A DNA stretch of 64,000 nucleotides from Escherichia coli (GTDB taxonomy: Bacteria; Pseudomonadota; Gammaproteobacteria; Enterobacterales; Enterobacteriaceae), in NCBI RefSeq assembly GCF_044324875.1, contig NZ_CP172188.1; one strand, written 5' to 3'. Of the stretch, positions 4,197-63,375 are shown one piece after another; the first letter of the stretch is position 1, and each line of letters starts with the position of its first letter. The position numbers and the translations under genes are program-made. The notes under the pieces are model-generated. The model saw only the letters and a program-made list of their open reading frames with translations. It made no database searches and was not told where the DNA came from.

Positions 4197-4301
4197 AATA
4201 CTGACTGTTGCGCCCTGGCATTATCGTGGGGTATATTTCTACGGCACCTTAGAAAAACGGGTGCCGGGATTGGAACCCCGGATAATGCAAAAGGCGACAC
4301 A

Positions 4302-4323
4302 GACGCCGAAAGCGTCTTTTCTT
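4302..4323 (+). terminator. rho-independent terminator candidate
   Basis: gacgc-cgaaa-gcgtc hairpin followed by ttttctt. Confidence 0.5.
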
Positions 4324-4329
4324 GTGTCA

Positions 4330-4508
4330 TGCCATCGCACAGCCATACGTAGCGTTTAGCTCAGAGATCAATGGTAGTGCTGGCTGGGCTGCCGAAAGGC
4401 AGGCCGGTTCCCTTTTGCGCCGGTAGTTCCAACCCAGTCAGTGCTACCGCCATTGAGATTGGAACCTCACGCGGTAGCTCCTTAAATTAGCAAAAGGAGG
4501 CTGCCAAT
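4330..4508 (+). promoter_or_regulatory. structured leader of antirepressor module A (differs from the leaders of modules B/C/D)
   Basis: Hairpins ctgcc-gaaa-ggcag (~4388-4401) and gttccaa...ttggaac (~4415-4458); AGGAGG before the ATG at 4509. Confidence 0.3.
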
Positions 4509-21392: not shown

Positions 21393-23054
21393 TTAACCTA
21401 ACTTCGCCCAGGTATCACGCAGCCCAACGGTGCGGTTAAATACCGGTTTTTCCGCCGTAGAATGGCGGCTATCGAGGCAGAAGTAACCTTCACGCTCAAA
21501 CTGGAATGCTTTACCCGCAACCGCATCTTTCAGCGACGGTTCAGCAAAGCCCTGTTTGATCACCAGCGATTCCGGGTTAATCACCGACAGGAAATCATCC
21601 GCAGCACCTGGGTTAGGCACGCTGAACAGACGATCGTACAGGCGGATTTCAACCGGCAGCGCATGTGCCGCGCTCACCCAGTGAATAACGCCTTTCACTT
21701 TACGACCATCTGCCGGATCTTTGCTTAAGGTGTCGGCGTCATAAGTACAGAAGATGGTGGTGATATTGCCTTCGGCATCTTTCTCCACGCGTTCAGCCTT
21801 AATGACGTAAGCATTACGCAGACGCACTTCTTTACCCAGCACCAGACGTTTGTACTGCTTGTTAGCTTCTTCGCGGAAATCGGCGCGGTCGATCCAAATC
21901 TCACCGCTAAACGGCACCTGACGGCTACCCATTTCCGGTTTGTTCGGATGGTTCGGCATGGTGACCATTTCGCCTTCGCCCTGGTAGTTTTCGATAACCA
22001 GTTTCACCGGATCGATAACCGCCATTGCGCGCGGCGCATTTTCGTTGAGATCTTCACGGATGCAGGATTCCAGCGACGCCATCTCAATGGTGTTGTCCTG
22101 CTTGGTCACGCCGATGCGTTTGCAGAACTCACGAATAGAAGCCGCAGTGTAACCACGACGACGCAGACCGGAAATGGTCGGCATACGCGGGTCATCCCAG
22201 CCTTCAACGTGTTTGTCGGTCACCAGCAGGTTCAGCTTACGCTTGGACATCACGGTGTATTCCAGATTCAGGCGCGAGAATTCGTACTGGCGCGGGTGAA
22301 CAGGAATGGTGATGTTGTCCAGCACCCAGTCGTACAGGCGACGGTTGTCCTGGAACTCAAGCGTACACAGAGAGTGCGTAATACCTTCCAGCGCATCGCT
22401 GATGCAATGGGTGAAGTCGTACATCGGGTAGATGCACCACTTGTTGCCAGTCTGGTGGTGTTCAGCAAATTTAATGCGGTACAGCACCGGATCGCGCATT
22501 ACGATAAATGGCGACGCCATGTCGATTTTCGCACGCAGGCAGGCTTTACCTTCTTCAAAACCACCGGCACGCATTTTTTCGAACAGCGCCAGGTTCTCTT
22601 CAACGCTGCGATCGCGGTACGGGCTGTTTTTACCCGGCTGCGTCAGGGTGCCGCGGTATTCGCGGATCTGTTCCGGCGTCAGTTCGTCAACATACGCCAG
22701 GCCTTTGTTGATCAGTTCAACAGCATAGGCGTGGAGCTGATCAAAATAATCGGAGGAGTAACGGATGTTGCCAGACCAGTGAAAACCTAACCATTCAACG
22801 TCGTTTTTAATCGACTCGACGTACTCGATATCTTCTTTTACCGGGTTAGTGTCGTCGAAACGCAGGTTGCACTGGCCTTTATAGTCCTGGGCGATCCCGA
22901 AGTTCAGGCAGATAGATTTCGCATGACCAATATGCAGATAGCCATTCGGTTCCGGCGGGAAACGGGTATGTACTGTGGTGTGCTTACCACTGGCCAGATC
23001 TTCATCGATGATCTGACGAATAAAGTTAGTCGGGCGGGCTTCTGCCTCACTCAT
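21393..23054 (-). CDS. glnS: glutamine--tRNA ligase (GlnRS)
   Basis: 553 aa, colinear with E. coli GlnS over the whole length as I recall it (HIGH motif, VMSKR motif); C-terminus ...WAKLG. Confidence 0.95.
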
Positions 23055-23322: not shown

Positions 23323-23610
23323 TTATTTTGCTTCCTCAGACTCCGCTAACATGAGGATAGCATGGCGGATCATATTCAATTTGCTACGATTATGCTTTTT
23401 ACTTAACGCATCAAGTACCTGGTACTCGTATTCATTGAAACCAACACGAATAGATTTAAAATCACGTGGAGCGTCCTTATCGAGCACTTTGTTGTCTTCT
23501 GGTTGCTCACCCGGCACCAAATCAGCCTTACTTGCAAAATCCTCAATTCGGCGTTCAAGATCGGGGTCTTTTACTTCGGGGGCTTTTACCGATTTACGAG
23601 GCTTAATCAC
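23323..23610 (-). CDS. small partition protein (ParG-like, second gene of the ParA operon)
   Basis: 95 aa, directly downstream of and overlapping the Walker-type parA; C-terminus ...LNMIRHAILMLAESEE consistent with a ribbon-helix-helix-type centromere binder. Confidence 0.6.
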   Translation of the reverse strand: MIKPRKSVKAPEVKDPDLERRIEDFASKADLVPGEQPEDNKVLDKDAPRDFKSIRVGFNEYEYQVLDALSKKHNRSKLNMIRHAILMLAESEEAK

Positions 23611-24244
23611 TTAATAACTCCTTAACCAACATCTGGATTTCACCTTTAGCTTTCCCGTTGTCCATCTCAACAACGCCCTTCCCTTCAGCCATGCAATCGC
23701 GGTAAACCTTACGATCACGAATGATGGTTTTCAGCAACTTCAGTTGCGGATATTCAGCCAGGTACTCTTTGGCCTCATTGGTTTCATTCACAACCGGATT
23801 GGATGGGGCCATTGTTAAGACTGCGAACGCCTTAATGCTAGGATTAGGCATCAGGTCCAAAGCCTCTTCAAACACTTCAACAAAGTGTGCCAGCGTGTCT
23901 AAATCTGGTTGAGATGGTCTGAATGGGACCAACACAATATCTGCAGCGGTTATGCCTGTACGCATCTCTTTGCTATCGCGCCCGGCTGTATCAACAACTA
24001 CAAATTCATAACGCTTATCCAGATCGAGAAGTGTTTCTCGAATATTACCAAACTTCTGGACACAATGAATTACAGGAGAAACCTCTGCCGTGTTACGGTC
24101 AGCGGCCCAGCGGGCAGCTGTTCCTTGCTTGTCTGCATCTAGTAACACTACATCCTTATTTTCGCGGGCAAGCTCCGCACAGATGTTTACGCTTGTGGTT
24201 GATTTTCCACAGCCACCTTTTTGGCTGACTACCAATATAATCAT
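23603..24244 (-). CDS. parA: ParA-family partition ATPase (small, type Ib-like)
   Basis: KGGCGKST deviant Walker A; 213 aa. Confidence 0.8.
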   Translation of the reverse strand: MIILVVSQKGGCGKSTTSVNICAELARENKDVVLLDADKQGTAARWAADRNTAEVSPVIHCVQKFGNIRETLLDLDKRYEFVVVDTAGRDSKEMRTGITAADIVLVPFRPSQPDLDTLAHFVEVFEEALDLMPNPSIKAFAVLTMAPSNPVVNETNEAKEYLAEYPQLKLLKTIIRDRKVYRDCMAEGKGVVEMDNGKAKGEIQMLVKELLSD

Positions 24245-24269
24245 ATCCGTTCCTCGGTGTTATTTTGGT

Positions 24270-24480
24270 ATCAAACTGGTTCCAAACAGAAGCCTTATTG
24301 ATGCGGTTTTGGCTCTATAGTGGAGTCATTATGCTTTGCAAAAGTATAACACTAATCATTCTAAATTTGCCCTCTGTTGCATCCTGTTTAACACGAAATC
24401 AGCACTAAATTGGAACCAGATACAAAGCAGCACCATAACAACACCGTTTTGGTACTAAAAGAGCACCAAACTAGAACCAT
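24270..24480. promoter_or_regulatory. parA upstream region with repeated TGGTTCCAA / TTGGAACCA and GCACCAAA motifs
   Basis: Short repeats shared with the element at 23225-23289. Confidence 0.35.
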
Positions 24481-24488
24481 AACGGTAT

Positions 24489-24516
24489 AAAAAAGGCTGC
24501 AAATTGCAGCCTTTGA
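24489..24516 (-). terminator. rho-independent terminator after parR
   Basis: Perfect palindrome GGCTGCAAATTGCAGCC flanked by A6 (plus) / T6 (minus). Confidence 0.55.
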
Positions 24517-24529
24517 AGATGTAGATTGG

Positions 24530-24901
24530 TTAATCAGGGAGTGAGTTTGCCAAATTCTGAGCAGAGCGGCTTTTCGGAACGCCTGGTTTTTTTACATCCT
24601 CTGAGACAGAGGTTTTTCCTTCAGTAGGTTCCCGAACTTCATGCGAAATTTCAAGAAACGAAACCAGCATTTTTCTGATCACTTCAGAGCTATTATCACC
24701 GGATAAAAGCGATGCCAACATGGGAGGTAATCTGCTATCAACCTCGCCAAGAGCGATACCTGCAAGCATCGCAGTGCGCACCATATCATTGCGATCACTT
24801 AATGGATGGGCCTCAATTTTTGCCACAGCATATTGCTCACTGGCGTAAGCGTTAAGATCTGAACGAAGATAAAACATTATTTTTCGACGTTCTTTAGACA
24901 T
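24530..24901 (-). CDS. parR: ParR/StbB-like centromere-binding protein
   Basis: 123 aa directly downstream of parM; similar in size and N-terminal character to plasmid R1 ParR. Confidence 0.6.
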   Translation of the reverse strand: MSKERRKIMFYLRSDLNAYASEQYAVAKIEAHPLSDRNDMVRTAMLAGIALGEVDSRLPPMLASLLSGDNSSEVIRKMLVSFLEISHEVREPTEGKTSVSEDVKKPGVPKSRSAQNLANSLPD

Positions 24902-24911
24902 GGCAACCTCA

Positions 24912-25871
24912 TCAACCGATAGATTTTAGACCATATACAAGAGCAAGTTGTGGATCATCAGCAACGAAAAACCTATCGTCACGAATGTTTACCTGCTCAC
25001 GGATAGCATCAGCAACAAGCGGCGCGCCGCCACCAATTACCATAACATGTGTGTATCCTTTGAAATCACTGATCACATCCAGTACGCGTGTACGGAGTCG
25101 CTCTATGCTTGACGAAATGGCTTTCTTAACATCATCAATAGCAGACGGATCGTTAATATTGTCGGTCAGATAATCCTCATCATCTCGATTAATGATTAAT
25201 TGATCGACGTTATAATTAGAGGTTTCGGTATTAGCTTTTGCAAGTGCCTGTCTGACCTCTTTAGTTACCAGCGAAACGCCGAGATTAGAATCGCCAAATA
25301 CGCGAGAAACGGCGGTCATTTGCCCGGCAACCATCGACACATCCAGAGTAGTCCCGCCAAGATCAACAATAAGCACAGAATGCGCTGGCACAAGGCTGTC
25401 GCACAGACCGATCCCTGCGGGTATTGACTCCGGGCGCACAGTCACTTTTTTGATAGTAAAAACCTGACCTTTGTTAAGGGTGACTGGTCGCATCAGGCTG
25501 GCCTTTTTCCGCTCAATATTTTTCATGTTGTATTGTGCGTCGTCGTCATAAAACTCTGCCAGTGGCAACGTGACTACTATTTCCACTTCTTGAGGCTCAA
25601 TGCCACTTGTAAGCAGGGCATGATGAACAGCAAGCACATTAAGCGGGCTGTATTGCCATTCAACGTTATTCGTTGGCAGAGCATCCGGCGAGATCAAGTC
25701 ATATGAATATTTTTCGTCATCAATGATGTAGTTAAACGTTTTTCCTGCGCCAAATGTGGCGGACCATCCACGTTTAAAACTGTTCGGGCAGATATGGGTT
25801 CGAGTTTCCCCGTCTTGTTCCCACAGCATTTTGATATTGGTAGAACCATCGTCGATAAAAATGCGCATCAT
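24912..25871 (-). CDS. parM: ParM/StbA actin-like plasmid segregation ATPase
   Basis: MMRIFIDDGSTNIKM..., WQY..NV.AVHHALLTSG, ESIPAG, IVDLGGTTLDVS, GYTHVMVIGGGA: colinear with R1 ParM as I recall it; start at MMRIF. Confidence 0.85.
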   Translation of the reverse strand: MMRIFIDDGSTNIKMLWEQDGETRTHICPNSFKRGWSATFGAGKTFNYIIDDEKYSYDLISPDALPTNNVEWQYSPLNVLAVHHALLTSGIEPQEVEIVVTLPLAEFYDDDAQYNMKNIERKKASLMRPVTLNKGQVFTIKKVTVRPESIPAGIGLCDSLVPAHSVLIVDLGGTTLDVSMVAGQMTAVSRVFGDSNLGVSLVTKEVRQALAKANTETSNYNVDQLIINRDDEDYLTDNINDPSAIDDVKKAISSSIERLRTRVLDVISDFKGYTHVMVIGGGAPLVADAIREQVNIRDDRFFVADDPQLALVYGLKSIG

Positions 25872-25964
25872 ATTGCTCCACTTCTGAGACACATTTGAGA
25901 AAGAATTGAATCTTATATGAGAAAACAAAATAAAACCAGAAGTTGAGAGAGCAAAAAGCACCAG

Positions 25965-26032
25965 ATTTGAGACAAACCAGAGACAAACCAGAGACAAACT
26001 AGAGACACACTAGAGACAAGTATGAGAAACAA
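25965..26032. repeat. parC-like centromere iterons upstream of parM
   Basis: Five to six tandem ~11-bp units GAGACAAACCA / GAGACAAACTA / GAGACACACTA / GAGACAAGTAT. Confidence 0.6.
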
Positions 26033-27996: not shown

Positions 27997-28237
27997 GTTG
28001 CAGCAAATTCTGCGACCGGGTTTAGCAGCCTGAATGTACATGCGGACAACCGCAGATATCCGATATTGCGGTATTTTTGTGTCCGTAAAACCATGTTACG
28101 CCCGAATTATGGTGGGGCGTGATGGGGAGGCTTCGGCCTGCTGGTTTCATGTACGCCAGTCTGCTAACCCCGTCACGTCCTGCCACCCGTTTAGCAGCGG
28201 GTAGCAGGTTGTTAAACCTGTACATGAGGCCGTAACT
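27997..28237 (+). ncRNA. structured leader with an embedded c4-like antisense regulator and two target sites (module B)
   Basis: Elements TTAGCAG/GTACATG at 28022-28042 and 28191-28226 (the second abuts the GAGG Shine-Dalgarno) are complementary to CATGTAC/CTGCTAA at 28148-28167; the complementarity is kept by compensatory changes in modules C and D. Confidence 0.5.
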
Positions 28238-37111: not shown

Positions 37112-38110
37112 TTAACTAACAATCCAGTCCATAGCAATAACATCCTCTGGAGCTAAATCAATAGCATGGATTTTCCCGTCACGGATGGTGCGCCAGTGCT
37201 TTCGTGATCCACCTTCGGGCCATACCCATACACCTTCAGGCCAGGAAGAACGACGACACACTGTTGCGTATCCAGTCCTGATCTTCTCTCTGACGGTATG
37301 CAGTGACAGATTATCTTTTGGGATTTCCGGTAAAGGATGATGGATTGCCTGAAACAGCCCCATCTTCGGATGATACCAGCGTTTGTTGCGTGGTTCTGCC
37401 TCCGACATAACCTGCTTGAAGGCTTTCCGGAAGGGGGCCAGGGCCACAATGGAGCGTCGGGCAAGCAAACCATCTGGAGTTAAAAACTCATGCGTATCGG
37501 TGGGAATCCGGTAAGCGTTGACAAGGTTGCGGCATTTGGCTTCAGTCAGGCCACATTTCGCCGCCAGCTGGCGGTAGCCAATGTAGCCTTCCGGCATATT
37601 GCCTTTCTTGATTTGCTCGACGGTTTCAGCGACTTTGGACACTTGTGCCGATACCTCGGCTACCTGGGCATTTACGGCGTTAATCCGGCGTTCATGTTCA
37701 AGATGCATTTGCGCCATTTCAGCCAGGATTTCGGCTTTTGATTTTAGCGGTGAGTGCTCCGGTATTAATTGCTTAATACGAAAATAGCTGTTTACCAGCT
37801 CACGTTGCACTTGCCAGGCCAGATCGTCATTGAATGACTTAACAATCATTAGATAACCGGACTCAGTGAACACGCGCAAACCGCGCGGGGGGACATTAAT
37901 TCCAAAAGTGTCAAAAACGCCCTTTTCAGAGTAATCAATAAGATAGGTATCTACACCATCAACAAAACGGTGCTTGTTACGATGGAAAGTTGTTTTAGCT
38001 AATCCTTTTGGTCGCTCGTGCACCTCATCAATCATCTCAAAGGTCACTACACGCTGATTTTTATATTCGAGAGTCGGGAATGGTTTGTTATTGATAGTTA
38101 CTGCGTCCAT
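37112..38110 (-). CDS. phage antirepressor-type protein with a KilA-N/ORF6N-like N-domain, module C
   Basis: Start at MDAVTINNKPFPTLEYKNQRVVTFEMIDEVHERPKG... (TAATG coupling with the upstream small ORF); C-terminal ~180 aa nearly identical to modules A and B; the ORF track extends to 38197. Confidence 0.6.
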   Translation of the reverse strand: MDAVTINNKPFPTLEYKNQRVVTFEMIDEVHERPKGLAKTTFHRNKHRFVDGVDTYLIDYSEKGVFDTFGINVPPRGLRVFTESGYLMIVKSFNDDLAWQVQRELVNSYFRIKQLIPEHSPLKSKAEILAEMAQMHLEHERRINAVNAQVAEVSAQVSKVAETVEQIKKGNMPEGYIGYRQLAAKCGLTEAKCRNLVNAYRIPTDTHEFLTPDGLLARRSIVALAPFRKAFKQVMSEAEPRNKRWYHPKMGLFQAIHHPLPEIPKDNLSLHTVREKIRTGYATVCRRSSWPEGVWVWPEGGSRKHWRTIRDGKIHAIDLAPEDVIAMDWIVS

Positions 38111-38325
38111 TAATGCACCTCCACGCAGTTCATTGGGCGGTTCCAGTAGGTCAAAACGTCCAGGGCATCGAGTTTGAAGCGAGCCGCAAAAATGCACGGA
38201 TCTGTAGGAAGAAATGAACGCGCTTCAGCCTCAGTAGCTGCCATTACGGTGATATAGGTGTGTTTTGTGCAGGAATAAAAGCGCCAGATGAATTCTGGAC
38301 GTGAGCAAGGATTGGCATTAACCAT
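38110..38325 (-). CDS. small protein upstream of the antirepressor (Icd-position ORF, module C)
   Basis: 71 aa; paralogue of 4509-4724. Confidence 0.65.
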   Translation of the reverse strand: MVNANPCSRPEFIWRFYSCTKHTYITVMAATEAEARSFLPTDPCIFAARFKLDALDVLTYWNRPMNCVEVH

Positions 38326-38566
38326 AGTTACGGCCTCATGTACAGGTTTAACAACCTGCTACCCGCTGTCAAACAGGTGGCAGGGCGTGACAGGGTTGAC
38401 AGACTGGCGTACATGAAACCAGCAGGCCGAAGCCTCCCCATCACGCCCCACCATAATTCGGGCGTAACGTGGTTTACGGACACAAAAATACCGCAATATC
38501 GGAAATCTGCGGATGTCCGCATGTACATTCAGGCTGTCAAACCTGGTCGCAGAATTTGCTACGACG
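38326..38566 (-). ncRNA. structured leader with a c4-like antisense regulator (module C)
   Basis: Minus-strand elements TTGACAG/GTACATG (targets) and CATGTAC/CTGTCAA (antisense) in the same arrangement as module B. Confidence 0.5.
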
Positions 38567-38571
38567 GCGTG

Positions 38572-38600
38572 AATATAAGCCTGAACATCTGGAAGATCAA
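38572..38600 (-). promoter_or_regulatory. sigma70-like promoter of module C
   Basis: Reverse complement of TTGATC-17-TATATT. Confidence 0.5.
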
Positions 38601-38653
38601 CATCAAATTGTTGATGATTTATTTTATTATTCATGTTTGAAAATTCAAATTAT

Positions 38654-38666: not shown

Positions 38667-38789
38667 TACGAAAGGGAGTGAAAATTATTCTCCAGCGTTA
38701 ACCCAAACAAAATTATGTGTGCTGGAGGGTTGCTCATTTCCCGTCAGCACCCACGCCCTCAACGATAGCGGGTAGGGAAGGAAGCGCAA

Positions 38790-39088
38790 TTTTGAGGGCA
38801 TTTTTTACATCATCAATCCATATGTAATGAAGGCATTCTTTACACATTTCAATAATATCAATCAGTTAGCACAGTGAATGATAATAAAAAAGCGCAATAA
38901 GAATGCACGATACGCACGATATTGGTTGAGGGTAATTTTTACATAATCCTTATATATCAATATGTTATATAAAAACACAACTTACCAATAACAAGATACA
39001 TGCAATTAAGATGTAAAAATTGCCCTCAATTGCCGATCGTTAAGGGCAAATTCTACACCTTGAGAGGGGTGTAAAAATTGCCCTTAAG
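38790..39088. repeat. iteron cluster downstream of repE (copy-control / incompatibility-type repeats)
   Basis: Repeats of TGAGGGCA(A/T)TTTTTACA and inverted copies (for example 38791-38812, 38926-38946, 39010-39029, 39041-39088) in an AT-rich region. Confidence 0.55.
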
Positions 39089-39839
39089 ACTGCTGATAGG
39101 TAAATTTTATCCTGGTAACTTTGCCGCCTTCCGTCACCTCTGAGAAGACTATTTTCATTTTTGTATTTTTTTCAATCTCTGCTACAGCCTTCGTTAAAAA
39201 ACTTCTCTTAAATTCGGCATACCGCTGATAGCTTTTTGGTAACCCATAACGCTCCCGCATCCATTCGACGCCAAGTATGGCAAAGCCGCTTCCATCATCC
39301 TTCCTGTACTGGCATAAGGACTCATAAAGCCGCATAGAATAAGGATTTGTAAGGCGAGATACTTCGGTAAAATTCAGCCTTGTGAATCTCTTATCAAGCA
39401 GAGTAAAAAACGGCATGAGATATGGATTAAGATGAATAATGTAAGTCCCACGCCGTGGTGAATAGGCATCCTTAATCATCCAAGGATAAGACTCATAACT
39501 GTCTTCTGATTCGGTCGATTCATCAGGGTTATATATCGTAACTTTCTTCTCGCTAAGACCTGAAATGGCCTTACGAATATCCTTGCTGGCTTCAGCAGAG
39601 GGCAAATTATACATCTCTGCATATTCGTTGACCGTCAACTCACAGGCACCTGAACCAAGAACGCCATCCTTAGAAGCATAGCGAAGCCTTCCCACCACAA
39701 TAAACAACAGTCGCTTTTGGTCGCGAGTCAGGTGATAAGCAGCCTCCGTGATCTCATTGGCTTGTGCCAAACTACGACTAATAGGTGTCGCTGACTCAAT
39801 CAGGCTGACGGCTTTTGCTGTTAATTCCGCTCTGTTCAT
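39084..39839 (-). CDS. RepE-like iteron-binding replication initiator (mini-F type)
   Basis: ...EAAYHLTRDQKRLLFIVV..., FGLTSAEASKDIR-like NLPSAEASKDIRKAISG, YESYPWMIKDAYSPRRGTYIIHLNPYLMPFF, NPYSMRLYESLCQYRKDDGSG closely resemble F-plasmid RepE as I recall it; start at 39839 (ATG) or 39872 (TTG). Confidence 0.75.
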   Translation of the reverse strand: MNRAELTAKAVSLIESATPISRSLAQANEITEAAYHLTRDQKRLLFIVVGRLRYASKDGVLGSGACELTVNEYAEMYNLPSAEASKDIRKAISGLSEKKVTIYNPDESTESEDSYESYPWMIKDAYSPRRGTYIIHLNPYLMPFFTLLDKRFTRLNFTEVSRLTNPYSMRLYESLCQYRKDDGSGFAILGVEWMRERYGLPKSYQRYAEFKRSFLTKAVAEIEKNTKMKIVFSEVTEGGKVTRIKFTYQQS

Positions 39840-39863
39840 AACCCTGTGTGATCCTTCAAATGG

Positions 39864-40125
39864 TGAGGGCAATTTTTACATCACTTTGAGGGCAATTACT
39901 ACACCTTTTGAGGGCAAATCTTACACCTTCTGAGGGCAAATCTTACACCGATCGTATCTAATTGAGGGCAAATCTTACACCAGACTCCTCTACAGCCCGC
40001 GCCACTACTGGCTCCAGCGACGCCTAAAAAGGATCTAAAAAGGATTAAAAATGGAAAAAGGTTTATAAAAATACTCTGTGGATATGTGAGTAGCGTCACT
40101 TAAGGTGTAAAAATCACCCTCAATA
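39864..40125. repeat. origin-type iterons, AT-rich tract and DnaA-box-like site upstream of repE
   Basis: Five direct ~19-22-bp iterons TGAGGGCAAATCTTACACC (39864-39981), one inverted copy (40105-40123), A-rich tract 40030-40075, TGTGGATAT (~40078-40086) one mismatch from a DnaA box. Confidence 0.6.
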
Positions 40126-40227
40126 ATCGCTTCTCGACCGGCAAAGATCTTCATTCAATCCCCATCGCAAATCACACACTCCCTATCCTCTGGAAAATGA
40201 ACAGATACCTGCTTTTCGGAGGAATAA

Positions 40228-41103: not shown

Positions 41104-44100
41104 ATGGCGAGCACTCCATATGTCAAAAGCCCTAGAAGAAAAATACAAAGCTCAAGCCGGGAAACGTTGATCGCCGCTGGCAAAAGAGAGGTTATTTTGA
41201 AAGAGAATAAAGACCGTATCGCAATAATTGACGCTATTCAGGGGGCGAGCACAAACGAACTTAAGGCTCTTGCTGAGATCAAAGACGCCATTCTCTCTGG
41301 TAGAGGGTCTATAACTCAACTTGGTGAAAATCAAGGTAAAGTAAGTCAAAGACTATCCCGTAGACGCATAGCAAGCGAACCCTATGTCTCTGGTGATGCC
41401 AAGAATACCCAAGCTAACCCATATATAAAACGCCTTCCGATGAAAAAAGGGAGGACGCAGGTCAACAACGGAGAAGAACGTCTCATTGTTGCAACCAACA
41501 CATCAGAGCGCGTTCATTTTGCGTCATCACGCCAGTCCGCCCAAAAGTTGAAAGGTTCTGTGCCAGTAGCCGCTAATTCTGCTCCTCTTGAACCACAATC
41601 CCCCCAAAGCCAAAAAGGACCGCTTCGGGATAGTAATGGACGCTTTGTATCCCAGAAAAACAACGAAGATATAGCCAGAAAAAAAGAATGGCAGAACGCA
41701 CGTAAGGCCGACGCCAAACTACAAGAAGGCTTCCTCCGGAAATTAGGCTCCATTATAGGGGTAGATGGCAATCAGTCTTCCAGTGAAGAGTCTTTAACAG
41801 ATGCCGCAGGTGTCGGCGCTGGTGGTCCGTTGTGGATGGCTGCTCGCGGCATGTACGACATTACTAAAGAGATCACAGGTAAAGCAGAATCTCTTAAAGA
41901 ATGGGTAGAAAAGGGGAAAGGTGAGGCTTTATCTTCGAAAGCGACATCACCAGCTATCACTTATCCGGCGGTGGTGAATACTCAAAAAGCAACCTCTGCA
42001 ACAGCATTTAATAATGCTGTTGAGACAAAATCAGCACAAGCAGTAGAAGAGCAAACAAAAATTCTTCAGACCAATGACAACAAAATAATTGATGGTCTGG
42101 AAAATGTCTCCGACGAAGTAGTTAAGCTACGCAAATCAGTATCTTCTGGGAATAAGTTCGGCTTAAGTGATCTCTGGAGAAATCGAGCAAGCAGAAGAAA
42201 TAAAATCAATATTGGCGATCAGGCTGGTAAAAATAAACGGAACAAACCGAAAAGGAAAGGTCGCAATCTGGGGAAAAATGCCCTTTCTGTTGGTGAAAAA
42301 GCCGCTGCCGGAACCGCTGCTGCTGGAGCTGGTGCCGGAGCTGCAAAGACTGTTAAAACAAAGGTTAGTAAAGCCAAAGACATCAGCACCACAAGCGACG
42401 CATCTAAGGGTATTGCTAAAGAAACAAAAAACACAGCAAAGGCAGTTAAGCCAGCAGGTGTTGTTGCCGAAGAGGCCACAATTAAAACAGGTGAAACTGT
42501 TGCAAAGAAAAAAACCGAATCCGTAGCCCTCAAAAGTGCTGCAAAAATAGGTGTTAAATCAGCTGCTTCTACAGCTGCAAGAGCTATCCCGATCATCGGA
42601 TCGCTGGCTATGGCGGGATATGACGCTATAGATGGTTACACTGATACAGATGCGCAAAAGGCAGCCTTTGGATTAAGTGACGATGATGCTGTATCCGAAC
42701 AGCAAAAAACGGCTTACGCAACAGCTAATGTGCTCGATATGGGGGGCTTGGTGTCGGGCGCAACGAACTTGATAGGGAAAGGAATTTCTGCGCTAGGATT
42801 TGAAAGAGCAGGTGAAAAACTTCAGAATTTTGATACCGGAGATATTGCTCGTGGTGTTAACGGCGCGGTAGATATCACCAAATCTGTTTTTGGTAACCTT
42901 AAGGATACATTTTTATCCACTGACGAAAACACGAAACAAGTAAAAAAAGCTGTTGAAGACGGCACAAAAAAAACTGTCGATGCGATTCATTCTCTTGGTG
43001 AACAATTACAAGGTGGGCGTAATGGCGAGGATGGAGTTGGTGAGCACGGGTATACTTCTCCAACTGAATTTAGTGCACCTGCCAACAACACCATTGCAGC
43101 GGATCTGAATATTGGCGGCAGCAACGCTAAAAACCGCAATTACCGAAATAATAATCTCGGCAATCTTGTTTTTGCCAACCAGGAAGGGGCGACGCTGGAA
43201 TCGCCAAATGCAAAAGGTGAACAACGTTTTGCGCGATTTAACACACCTGAAGAAGGGATCAGGGCACTGGCAAACCAGGTTTCCAGCTATTACAACGGCA
43301 CCAGTGCCGCAGCGGGATATCAGAAGTTACAGACGGTATCCAGCATCATTTCAAAATGGGCACCGCCAAATGAGAACAATACTAACCAATATATTGATAA
43401 CGTCAGTAAATATCTTGGTGTATCGCCTAATGAAAAAATAGATGTCAGCAAACCAGAAGTTATGACGCAATTAGTTCGTGCAATTGCGACGAAAGAAGGC
43501 GGAAATCCGGCAGTTAATAATGAGTTCATTAAGAACGCACTTGGAGCATTTAACACAAACACTGGTCGATGGGAGGGACAATTCTCTGACGAAACATTGG
43601 CGCGGATTAATAAAATTCAGAAAGAAAATGGTGGTCAGCTAATTGCCCGCGATTCGCAATATAGTGTTGGTCGCAAGGTAAAATATGCTAATGGAAAATC
43701 TCCAGCTCAACCAGTTTTGAATGCCGTTCCGACAGCAACACAACAGCCAATTGAGGTTGCACAACATGCCCAGGCAGTCAAAAAGCCACAAAAAACAGGT
43801 AACCAACCACAACCGATTAATCCAGAGAACGCTGATGTTAATACCGGCTCTCCATCGAGTTTGCTTGAGCGGTTAATCACAATAAATGAAAGCGGAATCA
43901 GTGGTGCAAGTAATTTATTTGGCGGCGCGGCTACCAGCCTTGCTGGAACAAGTCTGGACCTGGTAAAGGATTTTGCGTTAGCTACTTCGTTTGGTTCTAT
44001 ATCTTCGCTTTCCGAAAAAGCGAAAGGAATGGATCAGGCTCTTACTGAAAAGATATCCAGCTTAACCGGTAAATCTTTTGGATTTAAAAAAGCTTCTCAA

Positions 44101-45168
44101 GTGGCTGATATCGCAACAGCCATACAACAAAAACGCACTGTTAATCACGATACAGAAATCATTGATCTACTTCCGGGAGATCAAGTATCCCCTTCTACTC
44201 CGAAAACTCCACAGCAGGAGCAGGCTCTGGCAATCAACCAGGCTATGGAGGGCTTTTCGTCTGCAGCGCCAGCACCGAAAACCCCACAGCAGGAGCAGGC
44301 TCTGGCAATCAGCCAGGCTATGGCGGGCTTTTCGTCTGCAGCGCCAGCACCGAAAACCCCACAGCAGGAGCAGGCTCTGGCAATCAACCCGGCTATGGAG
44401 GGCTTTTCGTCTGCAGCGCCAGCACCGAAAACCCCACAGCAGGAGCAGGCTCTGGCAATCAGCCAGGCTATGGCGGGCTTTTCGTCTGCAGCGCCAGTAG
44501 TTACCTCTGGAAAACGAACTATCACGGCACCAAGTGATGTGCAGATTTATGACAACGGCTACAAGGTGGTTACAGGTGAGGATAAGAGCTTCTTTGGTTC
44601 GCTATTTGATTCCACGGTGTCAGGGCTTAAACAGACAGGAACCGCAGTAATTCCTGCCGTTGGCGATAACCTTTCACGACTTGTTGGGGGGATTGATAGT
44701 ACAGGGATATTGAACGATCTTGTAATGCAGTCTACTGGGCAGAATAGTGCGATTGCGCGAGCTATTAGCCCATTAACAAGAAATGTTGGAGACTGGTTGA
44801 ATGGGGGGATTCAACAAACCGCTAATAGCATTAGGGGAATAGCAACTGGTGCCAATAACGCCATATTTGGCTCTGCTTCAGCTGTGCAAGAACCTTTTCT
44901 TGCTATGCCGCCACAACTCCCTACTGTAACCGATCTCGCACGAAGCGGAATAAGACAACCATTAACTACTGACACTATAAATAACGATCCTGCTATGTTG
45001 AAGGCGCTGGATAACATCTGCTCTATCCTGAACGATCTGCTGAATGTGAACAAGAACAATACAAAAGGCGATCCGGATAATGTTGTCAAAACATCGCAGC
45101 CGCAGCCGCGACCACGTGCGAGCACAACTATTAATGACCAGTCGCTGGATGCTCTGCTTGAGGATTAA
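41104..45168 (+). CDS. tail tape-measure-like protein with an internal putative peptidoglycan-hydrolase-like region
   Basis: 1354 aa; Ala/Gly-rich helical stretches, internal 25-aa tandem repeats, and the region NRNYRNNNLGNLVFANQEGA...GGNPAVNNEF; located immediately upstream of baseplate genes. Confidence 0.55.
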   Translation: MASTPYVKSPRRKIQSSSRETLIAAGKREVILKENKDRIAIIDAIQGASTNELKALAEIKDAILSGRGSITQLGENQGKVSQRLSRRRIASEPYVSGDAKNTQANPYIKRLPMKKGRTQVNNGEERLIVATNTSERVHFASSRQSAQKLKGSVPVAANSAPLEPQSPQSQKGPLRDSNGRFVSQKNNEDIARKKEWQNARKADAKLQEGFLRKLGSIIGVDGNQSSSEESLTDAAGVGAGGPLWMAARGMYDITKEITGKAESLKEWVEKGKGEALSSKATSPAITYPAVVNTQKATSATAFNNAVETKSAQAVEEQTKILQTNDNKIIDGLENVSDEVVKLRKSVSSGNKFGLSDLWRNRASRRNKINIGDQAGKNKRNKPKRKGRNLGKNALSVGEKAAAGTAAAGAGAGAAKTVKTKVSKAKDISTTSDASKGIAKETKNTAKAVKPAGVVAEEATIKTGETVAKKKTESVALKSAAKIGVKSAASTAARAIPIIGSLAMAGYDAIDGYTDTDAQKAAFGLSDDDAVSEQQKTAYATANVLDMGGLVSGATNLIGKGISALGFERAGEKLQNFDTGDIARGVNGAVDITKSVFGNLKDTFLSTDENTKQVKKAVEDGTKKTVDAIHSLGEQLQGGRNGEDGVGEHGYTSPTEFSAPANNTIAADLNIGGSNAKNRNYRNNNLGNLVFANQEGATLESPNAKGEQRFARFNTPEEGIRALANQVSSYYNGTSAAAGYQKLQTVSSIISKWAPPNENNTNQYIDNVSKYLGVSPNEKIDVSKPEVMTQLVRAIATKEGGNPAVNNEFIKNALGAFNTNTGRWEGQFSDETLARINKIQKENGGQLIARDSQYSVGRKVKYANGKSPAQPVLNAVPTATQQPIEVAQHAQAVKKPQKTGNQPQPINPENADVNTGSPSSLLERLITINESGISGASNLFGGAATSLAGTSLDLVKDFALATSFGSISSLSEKAKGMDQALTEKISSLTGKSFGFKKASQVADIATAIQQKRTVNHDTEIIDLLPGDQVSPSTPKTPQQEQALAINQAMEGFSSAAPAPKTPQQEQALAISQAMAGFSSAAPAPKTPQQEQALAINPAMEGFSSAAPAPKTPQQEQALAISQAMAGFSSAAPVVTSGKRTITAPSDVQIYDNGYKVVTGEDKSFFGSLFDSTVSGLKQTGTAVIPAVGDNLSRLVGGIDSTGILNDLVMQSTGQNSAIARAISPLTRNVGDWLNGGIQQTANSIRGIATGANNAIFGSASAVQEPFLAMPPQLPTVTDLARSGIRQPLTTDTINNDPAMLKALDNICSILNDLLNVNKNNTKGDPDNVVKTSQPQPRPRASTTINDQSLDALLED
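44200..44500 (+). repeat. four in-frame tandem ~75-bp repeats inside the tape-measure-like gene
   Basis: Unit encodes APAPKTPQQEQALAI(N/S)QAM(E/A)GFSSA; read directly from the sequence. Confidence 0.8.
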
Positions 45169-61999: not shown

Positions 62000-62962
62000 G
62001 TGAGTATTTTAAATTCAGTTTCAGTAACTTTCAACACTTCTGAGTATAAAAACAACACTGAATACCACAAAAAAATCAAAGGTCATCAGTTGAGTTTTTT
62101 TGCTCGCCACTGTGGTTTTCTTTCCCCTTCACATAGCGCCATTATTGCCGAGTTCGCCAACCTGGCAGGGGCTACCGATGAATACATGATCCGTCGTTCA
62201 TATGCTGATATGTCCGAGATTACAGGACGCAGTATTTCTACTGTGCGCCGGGCATTTGCTGAAGCGACGAAGTGCGGAATGCTTGTTAAGCAACATCAGG
62301 TAGCGAATAACAATGCTCAGGTGTGTAACGTATACCGGTTTACAACACAATTTCTCCACTTCATTCATGTAGCAATGGAGATAGGGGGTAAGCAGGGCAT
62401 CAAATTTGCGAACGCCACAAAACTGGTTAAGCAGTTGATTTCAAATGTTCGGTATTTTTTTGAAACTGGGAACCCCCTGTTCAAATTGAACAAGTCCCCC
62501 CATGTTCAAAATGAACAGCCAATAGAAAATAAGAGTCACTCTATAGCCAAAAGAAGAGAAAGATCATGCGCGGTTCAGCCAAAGGCTTCACCAGCAGATA
62601 GTTCCCAAGCGGATAATGGATTACTGGATAAAAAACCAGTAATCAGGGAGGAACATACCAACCACTGCCTGGCGGCGGCAAAAGCGAGAGCTGCAAAGCG
62701 TCGTTCAGACGAGGGGCACGCAAAACGGCAGGCTCTGTATCGTACCGCTGAAAAGCTGGCAAAAAAATTTGCATGGATACGTAGTGCCGCTACCGCAGTG
62801 AATAAGCCTAAACAATCCAGTGCCCTGGATTTCTCAATGGATTATTCTGGCTCCCAGGGGTGTGCAACCATTGGTGAAGCCTTTGACCTGATGAAACAGC
62901 GTGGCTATCGGTCTGAATTTGACCGGGAGGATTGGTCAATCCCTGCGGGATTTAGGGGATGA
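62000..62962 (+). CDS. HTH-containing protein, possibly a replication initiator or regulator
   Basis: 320 aa; MSEITGRSISTVRRAFAEATKCGML HTH-like; basic C-terminal region; preceded by palindromes and a GATC cluster. Confidence 0.35.
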   Translation: MSILNSVSVTFNTSEYKNNTEYHKKIKGHQLSFFARHCGFLSPSHSAIIAEFANLAGATDEYMIRRSYADMSEITGRSISTVRRAFAEATKCGMLVKQHQVANNNAQVCNVYRFTTQFLHFIHVAMEIGGKQGIKFANATKLVKQLISNVRYFFETGNPLFKLNKSPHVQNEQPIENKSHSIAKRRERSCAVQPKASPADSSQADNGLLDKKPVIREEHTNHCLAAAKARAAKRRSDEGHAKRQALYRTAEKLAKKFAWIRSAATAVNKPKQSSALDFSMDYSGSQGCATIGEAFDLMKQRGYRSEFDREDWSIPAGFRG

Positions 62963-63135: not shown

Positions 63136-63375
63136 GTCGTAGCAAATTCTGCGACCAGGTTTGACAGCCTGAATGTTAGTGCGGACAACCGCAGATTTCC
63201 GATATTGCGGTATTTTTGTGTCCGTAAACCGCGTTACGCCCGAATTATGGTGGGGCGTGATGGGGAGGCTTCGGCCTGCTGGTTTCACTAACGCCAGTCT
63301 GTCAACCCTGTCACGTCCTGCCACCTGTTTGACAGCGGGTAGCAGGTTGTTAAACCTGTTAGTGAGGCCGTAACT
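63136..63375 (+). ncRNA. structured leader with a c4-like antisense regulator (module D)
   Basis: TTGACAG/GTTAGTG at 63161-63181 and 63329-63364; complementary CACTAAC/CTGTCAA at 63286-63305. Confidence 0.5.

Follow-up and report, generated by a model that had tools for sequence, protein, structure and literature searches.

A RepE-like, iteron-type replicon as the probable plasmid-maintenance origin of a D6-like phage-plasmid

Introduction

Which origin maintains a D6-like phage-plasmid as a plasmid, and how is that origin likely to be controlled? The 64,000-nucleotide stretch of Escherichia coli contig NZ_CP172188.1 that we analysed (the window) is a D6-like phage-plasmid of the P1 family. 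It carries partition genes (ParM/ParR together with a ParA-like ATPase) and a separate RepL lytic replicon at 62000-62962, and the presence of both ParM/ParR and a separate lytic RepL fits a plasmid-prophage lifestyle. About 13 kb from the partition genes lies a 1.5-kb cassette, set between the tail genes tub and pmgB, which we take to be adjacent in the P1 gene order. A first-pass annotation had read this cassette as a RepE-type iteron replicon. Our analysis finds every element of that description at the coordinates given and bears out its main reading: the encoded protein has both Rep3 domains and 50% identity to F RepE, and the DNA in front of its gene aligns with F ori2. With a probability of roughly 85%, this region is what maintains a D6-like P1-family phage-plasmid as a plasmid prophage: a replicon with an iteron-controlled theta-type origin and a RepE-like initiator.

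Results

A catalogued replicon shared by D6-like plasmids

At the DNA level, positions 38700-40200 match E. coli plasmid CP099081.1 at 100% identity and phage D6 at 99%. The region recurs at 99-100% identity in about 110 plasmid records from Escherichia (E. coli), Salmonella and Shigella, nearly all of them non-mobilizable and about 90 kb in size. MOB-suite assigns the D6-like plasmid records examined to rep_cluster_1704 as their sole typed replicon, whereas F is typed as IncFIA. The corresponding gene of phage D6, orf42, is annotated as "putative plasmid replication initiation", and the D6-like prophage pYU39_89 has been described with repB and iterons (PMC6799933). The replicon is therefore one that is already known and catalogued (rep_cluster_1704), and it is ordinary in kind.

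Common replicon-typing databases lack the D6 replication gene (2025 preprint), so PlasmidFinder would probably return nothing for this replicon. We considered and dropped a p0111 identity: in the literature p0111 and IncY are alternative P1 repA types, and D6 repB is treated as distinct from both and as absent from typing databases, that is, separate and untyped. The region likewise shows no sign of belonging to the P1 RepA/oriR (IncY) type, its initiator having no significant similarity to P1 RepA; the separation from p0111 comes from the literature only.

Subfamily-alignment scans of viral and genome contigs returned only copies that were 98-100% identical, and diverged relatives were obtained by protein search and contig look-ups. 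The diverged Rep relatives lie in differing backbones, one of them a Nissabacter plasmid and the others large contigs that carry phage-like or plasmid genes, which argues that the replicon module moves between elements. One record, NZ_CP027382.1 (36 kb), was rejected as a natural mini-replicon, as it is linear and incomplete.

An intact initiator from a sister branch of RepE

The initiator gene occupies most of the cassette:

39084-39839, minus strand: rep gene, ATG at 39839; intact, encoding a 251-aa RepE-like Rep_3 initiator (WH1+WH2); from the ORF call with domain, structure and BLASTP matches

The replication initiator noted in the first-pass annotation is thus present as an intact reading frame, which disposes of the concern, named beforehand, that the gene might be a pseudogene. 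The protein belongs to the Rep_3 family (PF01051/PF21205), with two winged-helix domains detected by Pfam: Rep3_N, or WH1 (102.7 bits, E 2.9e-29, cut-off 22.4), and Rep3_C, or WH2 (58.3 bits, E 9.1e-16, cut-off 21.1). A search of solved structures gave F RepE entries as top matches (E ~1e-73), with R6K pi and pPS10 RepA far below, and BLASTP aligned the protein to F RepE at 50% identity across 228 aa. The claim that it closely resembles F RepE stands in so far as RepE is its nearest characterised homologue. It does not extend to membership of the same family: the score against the NCBIfam RepE equivalog model NF010305 is 280.6 bits, below the cut-off of 342, the type is rep_cluster_1704 and not IncFIA, and PGAP names the protein RepB family.

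The initiator is 100% identical to the phage D6 orf42 protein. In a large protein collection its near relatives are few, forming clusters at 78, 71, 63, 60, 57 and 55% identity, and the large RepE group comes only after these, at ~50% identity. This distribution indicates that the initiator represents a small sister branch of RepE and not RepE proper. Residue 118 of F RepE (Arg; the position of the copy-up change R118P) is Asp in the D6-type protein. We found no significant similarity between the initiator and P1 RepA (best E 0.057), and we read the D6 annotation "similar to P1 repA?" as a note on function and not on homology.

Thirteen iterons confined to the cassette

To define the repeats we scanned the window with the 19-bp pattern TGAGGGCAAWTYTTACAYC, allowing up to 3 mismatches. 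All 12 matches fell within 38793-40122, against an expectation of 0.08 for the 64-kb window and a maximum of one match in any of 100 shuffles. Adding one degenerate copy (38828-38846) gives a full set of 13 iterons: five direct copies upstream of rep, one inverted copy beyond the AT-rich tract, six downstream copies in both orientations, and one copy inside the gene. The elements on the origin side are as follows:

39864-39981, plus strand: origin iterons u5-u1, five direct 19-bp copies, reading TGAGGGCAA... on the plus strand and GGTGTAAGATTTGCCCTCA in gene orientation
39982-40025, no strand: G+C-rich spacer between the iterons and the AT-rich tract; 33-47% A+T, 28/44 positions invariant, similar in length to the F spacer
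40026-40076, no strand: AT-rich tract, presumed DNA-unwinding element; 72-78% A+T, 48/51 positions invariant
40077-40093, minus strand: DnaA-box-like site, ATATCCACA (40085-40077), preceded by a degenerate second box, CTACTCAC
40104-40122, minus strand: inverted iteron u0, a single copy matching the pattern, on the far side of the DnaA box and AT-rich tract

Reading in the direction of the gene, one therefore meets the inverted iteron (40122-40104), the DnaA boxes (40093-40077), the AT-rich tract (40076-40026), the 44-bp G+C-rich spacer, the five direct iterons (39981-39864, spaced 32, 22, 22 and 23 bp), 24 nt, the ATG, the intragenic iteron (39615-39597), an iteron overlapping the stop codon, and five more iterons ending at 38793.

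The five direct upstream iterons had already been reported, and three of the five read exactly TGAGGGCAAATCTTACACC. They start at 39864, 39887, 39909, 39931 and 39963. Iteron-type theta replicons have at least three direct repeats in helical phase beside rep, and here there are five, spaced 22-23 and 32 bp. The single inverted iteron u0 was overlooked in the earlier annotation; relative L011 has three inverted iterons at the equivalent place. A P1 late-promoter-like AAGTGAC beside u0 was considered and dropped, as it lacks a usable -10 at the right distance.

An origin that aligns with F ori2

In the F ori2 model, melting starts at an AT-rich 13-mer, and the origin also has two DnaA boxes and four iterons to which RepE binds (PMC13028717). 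The corresponding DNA in the window aligns with it throughout: the DnaA boxes pair as GTTATCCACTTATCCAC in F against GCTACTCACATATCCAC in the window, and the alignment also runs through the motif TATTTTTATAA, the 13-mer region, the spacer and the iterons. The A-rich tract of the first-pass annotation is present as the AT-rich tract at 40026-40076, where a GATC at 40032 sits within the 13-mer-like TTTTTAGATCCTTTTTAG, aligned with TTTTTAGATCTTCTTTTTTAG of F ori2.

The DnaA-box-like TGTGGATAT is found at 40077-40085 with one mismatch to TTATCCACA. With 116 such boxes in the window, a match with one mismatch is common, and the sequence of TGTGGATAT taken by itself is not significant. The site is, however, the positional homologue of a known F DnaA box, aligning with the second box of the tandem pair in F ori2; it is invariant at 9/9 positions among relatives, and relatives L009, L013 and L017 have a perfect DnaA box, TTATCCAC, at the equivalent position. 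An AT-rich tract and a DnaA box beside the iterons, as judged from the 72-78% A+T and the alignment with the F boxes, are what a theta replicon would be expected to carry.

We examined conservation in five sequences: the window, phage D6, and three D6-like plasmids that are only ~85% identical in DNA over the region, yet encode Rep proteins 98-100% identical. The origin iterons are 95-100% invariant (18-19 of 19 positions each), against 2/13 positions in the spacer between u1 and u2, and u0 is invariant at 19/19. Downstream iterons are 74-89% invariant, and the spacers between iterons 12-25%. This contrast between iterons and spacers shows that each repeat, including the degenerate copy at 38828-38846, is maintained by selection.

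These observations bear on whether the replicon might be a relic, the element being maintained by another origin. The RepL replicon at 62000-62962 offers a candidate for that other origin, and we found no experimental report on the D6-type replicon in the literature searched. We nevertheless consider a relic extremely unlikely: the gene is intact and identical across >100 records, strong purifying selection acts on the cis sites, typing of these plasmids finds no further plasmid replicon, and in P1 RepL serves lytic replication, the plasmid replicon there being repA/oriR.

For a functional maintenance replicon, homology with F ori2 and RepE suggests how initiation might proceed. Rep monomers would bind the five phased 19-bp iterons; host DnaA would bind the adjacent box and, with Rep, open the AT-rich tract for helicase loading.

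A downstream iteron cluster suited to copy control

A second repeat cluster in both orientations had been placed at 38790-39088, and we find it as six copies:

38793-39086, both strands: downstream iteron cluster d1-d6, four copies in one orientation and two in the other (pattern scan)
39068-39086, minus strand: d1, overlapping the stop codon
39041-39059, plus strand: d2
39010-39028, minus strand: d3
38955-38967, plus strand: IHF-consensus site 1, TATCAATATGTTA, between d3 and d4; exact WATCAANNNNTTR match
38927-38945, plus strand: d4
38892-38917, minus strand: two overlapping terminator-like hairpins downstream of rep, within the cluster; the spacer is not conserved in relatives and their function is uncertain
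38856-38868, plus strand: IHF-consensus site 2, TATCAATCAGTTA, between d4 and d5; exact consensus match
38828-38846, plus strand: d5, degenerate
38793-38811, plus strand: d6

In the window, in F and in all relatives examined, the downstream iterons begin at the stop codon, the first one overlapping or abutting it. Relatives differ in how many downstream iterons they carry, from 1 to 13, so the cluster is accessory, and it fits a copy-control or incompatibility element.

The two IHF-consensus sites had been overlooked. Site 1 keeps its consensus positions in A1 while the N positions vary, and site 2 keeps the consensus in all five aligned sequences, again with differing N positions. The consensus is not enriched across the window (5 found against 3.6 expected); the evidence lies in the occurrence of two sites within 112 bp and in their pattern of conservation.

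In F, incC lowers copy number by looping (PMC13028717). By analogy with F incC and P1 incA, and judging from the layout, the six downstream iterons with their two IHF-like bends, together with the inverted and intragenic copies, may act as extra Rep-binding sites that titrate Rep and pair with the origin iterons (looping or handcuffing), and so keep copy number down. Handcuffing is proposed here by analogy with F and P1; its prerequisite, a conserved second array of the same 19-mer, is present.

The two IHF-like sites and the mixed orientations, unlike F incC, could instead point to another role for the cluster, for example as a centromere-like or transcription-insulating element, and no par genes are adjacent. 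This seems improbable to us: the cluster repeats the 19-mer of the origin iterons, and its position after the stop codon matches F incC. A ParM/ParR centromere is expected beside its par genes, and here ParM/ParR is 13 kb away. Copy control remains our preferred function for the cluster.

A predicted rep promoter within the iterons

The best promoter candidate for rep is the following:

39872-39901, minus strand: candidate rep promoter, weak but the best found; -35 TAGTAA, 18-nt spacer, extended -10 TGtAAAAAT, inside iterons u4/u5 (PWM scan)

Neither a consensus promoter scan nor a weighted PWM scan found a strong sigma-70 promoter for rep. The candidate scores 6.3, compared with 11.4 for the best in F (TTGACT-16-GACAAT with extended TG, at the inverted-repeat operator segment), and this arrangement also ranks first in relative L009.

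RepE dimers repress F repE at an inverted repeat (PMC13028717). The F segment of ~85 nt that holds this promoter (PrepE) and operator is an alignment gap in the window, L009 and L011; L013 has extra sequence at this position, which is a further iteron-like copy and not the F operator. A search near the rep start for an inverted pair of the GTGTAA half found none, and the F-type inverted-repeat operator is absent. Because only 24 nt separate the last iteron, u5, from the ATG, and the F-type operator segment is missing, the rep promoter must, on this sequence, overlap the gene-proximal iterons. Rep would then repress its own gene by binding those iterons, as annotated for P1 PrepA.

An iteron within the rep coding sequence

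One further copy of the repeat, overlooked in the earlier annotation, lies inside rep:

39597-39615, plus strand, the same orientation as u1-u5: intragenic iteron, GATGTATAATTTGCCCTCT in gene orientation, over codons M76-S81 (MYNLPS); two mismatches to the pattern

It is present at homologous codons in L011, L013, L015 and L016 (57-72% protein identity) and absent in L009 (78% identity), L017 and F, which has only ATTGACCTCTG there. A second iteron-like sequence within the gene, TATGTATTTTTCGCCCTGA in L015 and L016, was judged a coding by-product: it corresponds to a conserved F(Y/F)RP(E/D) peptide that F also has.

Could 39597-39615 itself be something other than a Rep-binding site, either a by-product of the conserved peptide MYNLPS or an internal promoter? 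Lineages with the site do conserve the peptide, the site contains a perfect TATAAT, with a TTGACG upstream in the window, and L009 and L017, which lack the site, presumably still replicate. Codon choice argues against a by-product. Across five lineages only 9/115 amino-acid-invariant degenerate codons are also codon-invariant, and three of the nine are Y77, N78 and P80, the sole run of such columns in the gene. The chance of these codons under each gene's own usage is 0.0025-0.046 per lineage, or ~10^-10.8 jointly, and CCC is used at 0/8 of the other prolines of the window gene. The only synonymous change in the site, TTG to CTG in L015, matches a variant among L015's own iterons. An internal promoter is the weaker alternative, as the conservation extends through TTGCCCTC, which a -10 element does not need, and the TTGACG is 21 nt away and not conserved. 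We therefore regard these alternatives, taken together, as rather unlikely.

The codon data instead indicate that selection on synonymous sites holds the intragenic iteron in place, in lineages whose protein identity falls as low as 57%. Going further, we tentatively suggest, at somewhat under even odds, that the D6-type branch lost the F-type dimer operator and has instead a selected Rep-binding iteron within its own coding sequence. If Rep does bind there, rep would sense its own product within the transcribed region, with the site acting as a transcription roadblock or as an origin-looping partner. We know of no such control element in enterobacterial iteron plasmids, and we found no description of the intragenic iteron in the literature searched, an incomplete collection; it is the sole feature of the replicon that might be new.

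The adjacent antirepressor module is a recent neighbour

Beyond the downstream cluster, and outside the replicon, lies a P1 immI-like module:

37112-38648, minus strand: immI-like module (Rfam, promoter scan, NCBIfam, PHROG)
38572-38648: promoter-like sites
38526-38578: c4 a1b1 targets
38373-38458: C4 RNA (Rfam)
38110-38325: icd-like gene (NCBIfam Icd-like)
37112-38197: antirepressor gene (PHROG anti-repressor)

Its position had suggested read-through or shared regulation between replication and the antirepressor module, an idea that our data do not support. Homology to D6 and relatives breaks at 38711, and in D6 and the diverged relatives tub lies directly beside the downstream cluster; the junction between rep and the module is spanned in only 5 plasmid records (the window and 4 others). 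We therefore conclude that the adjacency is a recent minority insertion with its own control and not part of the replicon.

The two do share a strand, and only 375 bp separate the rep stop codon from the module's first promoter-like site, so co-regulation by read-through from rep has some basis. It is nonetheless very improbable, given the module's own promoter-like sites, a1b1 targets and C4 RNA, the terminator-like hairpins and six predicted Rep-binding sites that lie between rep and the module, and the place of tub beside the cluster in D6 and most relatives. In P1, moreover, a single transcript yields both c4 RNA and its target, and read-through would therefore not be enough to free the antirepressor.

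Discussion

D6-like phage-plasmids occur widely in E. coli, Shigella and Salmonella, and the typing gap (2025 preprint) makes them easy to mis-score in plasmid surveillance. The replicon map given here (rep, 13 iterons, DnaA box, AT-rich tract and IHF-like sites) supplies a target for typing and defines a minimal fragment that vectors or incompatibility tests could use. The comparison with F suggests a well-studied control circuit rewired in a close relative, with the operator lost, the promoter within the iterons and an iteron inside the gene.

Comparison with known systems

The closest system is that of phage D6 orf42 and of repB in D6-like prophages such as pYU39_89. This is the same replicon, with 99% DNA and 100% protein identity to D6; unlike D6, the window and 4 other plasmid records have a c4-icd-ant module between the downstream cluster and tub.

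F RepFIA (ori2/oriS, incB, repE, incC) is the nearest characterised relative. Its initiator is 50% identical and of the same length, 251 aa. The two share an order of DnaA boxes, AT-rich 13-mer with GATC, G+C spacer, phased 19-bp iterons, rep, and iterons from the stop codon; the AT-rich tract, DnaA box and iterons align base for base, and the iterons share the TTGCCCTCA half. The other half is GGTGTAAGA in the D6-type, where it sits 1 nt closer, and TGTGACAAA in F. The D6-type has five origin iterons where F has four, and only one good DnaA box; it lacks the ~85-nt segment with PrepE and the inverted-repeat operator, and it has two further iterons that F lacks, one inverted and lying beyond the DnaA box, the other intragenic. 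Downstream, F has five iterons in one orientation followed by sopABC, whereas the D6-type has six, split four and two between orientations and accompanied by IHF-like sites; sopABC is not adjacent, the neighbours being the ant module or tub.

P1 oriR (DnaA box, GATC-rich AT tract, five incC iterons, repA, nine incA iterons) resembles the D6-type in its host, a P1-family phage-plasmid, in its five origin iterons, in a promoter that necessarily lies within them, and in a second iteron cluster past the gene. The AT tract, however, has one GATC in the D6-type against five in P1, the replicon lies between tub and pmgB and not beside parAB, partition is by ParM/ParR 13 kb away, and the initiator has no significant similarity to P1 RepA (best E 0.057).

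Repeats inside an initiator gene also occur in the RepA_N plasmids of Gram-positive bacteria (pAD1 repA, pCF10 prgW), where initiator-binding repeats lie within the initiator coding sequence and the whole origin is intragenic. The protein family is unrelated, and the D6-type differs in having a single extra copy within the gene, with the origin proper upstream.

C4 antisense RNAs and antirepressor modules

An Rfam search of the 64-kb window identified four C4 antisense-RNA genes, which we designate A to D in the order listed:

4367-4454, +, C4 antisense-RNA gene (copy A)
28105-28190, +, C4 antisense-RNA gene (copy B)
38373-38458, -, C4 antisense-RNA gene (copy C)
63243-63328, +, C4 antisense-RNA gene (copy D)

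The same type of search detected c4-a1b1 target elements for three of the four. Copies B, C and D are almost identical to one another, with one loop setting copy D apart from B and C (TTTCACTAACG versus TTTCATGTACG), and copy A is diverged. The presence of four C4 genes, together with the loop difference in copy D and the divergence of copy A, suggests that the window carries multiple antirepressor modules whose immunity specificities are partly distinct. Rfam also reported a match to the Hfq-binding sRNA isrK (59.4 bits; 4244-4322, +) directly 5' of the first C4 copy.

Partition, lytic replication and other genes

Domain and annotation searches of the window, and a coordinate offset to the E. 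coli plasmid CP099081.1, located the following genes:

24912-25997 and 24530-24901, -, ParM/ParR-type partition system (domain/annotation search)
23603-24244, -, ParA-like ATPase, separate from ParM/ParR
62000-62962, +, putative RepL ORF (coordinate offset)
41104-45168, +, sit-like transglycosylase ORF, 1354 aa

The partition genes (23603-25997) lie ~13 kb from the replicon and do not adjoin it. By offset, ORF 62000-62962 matches CP099081.1 24491-25453, annotated as "lytic replication protein" (RepL), and both encode 320 aa; a Pfam search of this ORF returned no match. A C4/icd/Rha module lies directly 3' of it.

The sit-like transglycosylase contains tandem repeats of ~29 aa (APAPKTPQQEQALAI...), and is 1354 aa long in the window. 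In CP099081.1, which is otherwise almost the same, its length is 1451 aa; repeat number therefore varies. The phage-plasmid also carries a full-length glutamine-tRNA ligase gene (21393-23054, -; 553 aa), in which all three class-I E/Q synthetase domains were found.

Related replicons and comparison with F RepE

In L015, a relative whose Rep is 63% identical to that of the window, 13 downstream iterons lie in a single orientation (L015:3245-3941). Most of them follow one another at 43-45 bp, and each second or third copy is followed by a wider interval of 74-89 bp, a layout far more regular than in the window. The replicon copy in the 169-kb Salmonella plasmid pSa1423-160k (L008; NZ_MK356558.1) has many single-base indels through rep and the iterons and no annotated CDS, and represents either low-quality sequence or a decayed copy.

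Among relatives, the residue at Rep position 120 is R, K or D. The aligned residue of F RepE is Arg118, and its substitution by proline (R118P) yields a monomer-prone, copy-up RepE (PMC13028717). Unlike F RepE, the window Rep has Asp at this position (codon 120, 39478-39480; MIKDAYSP versus FIKRAHSP).
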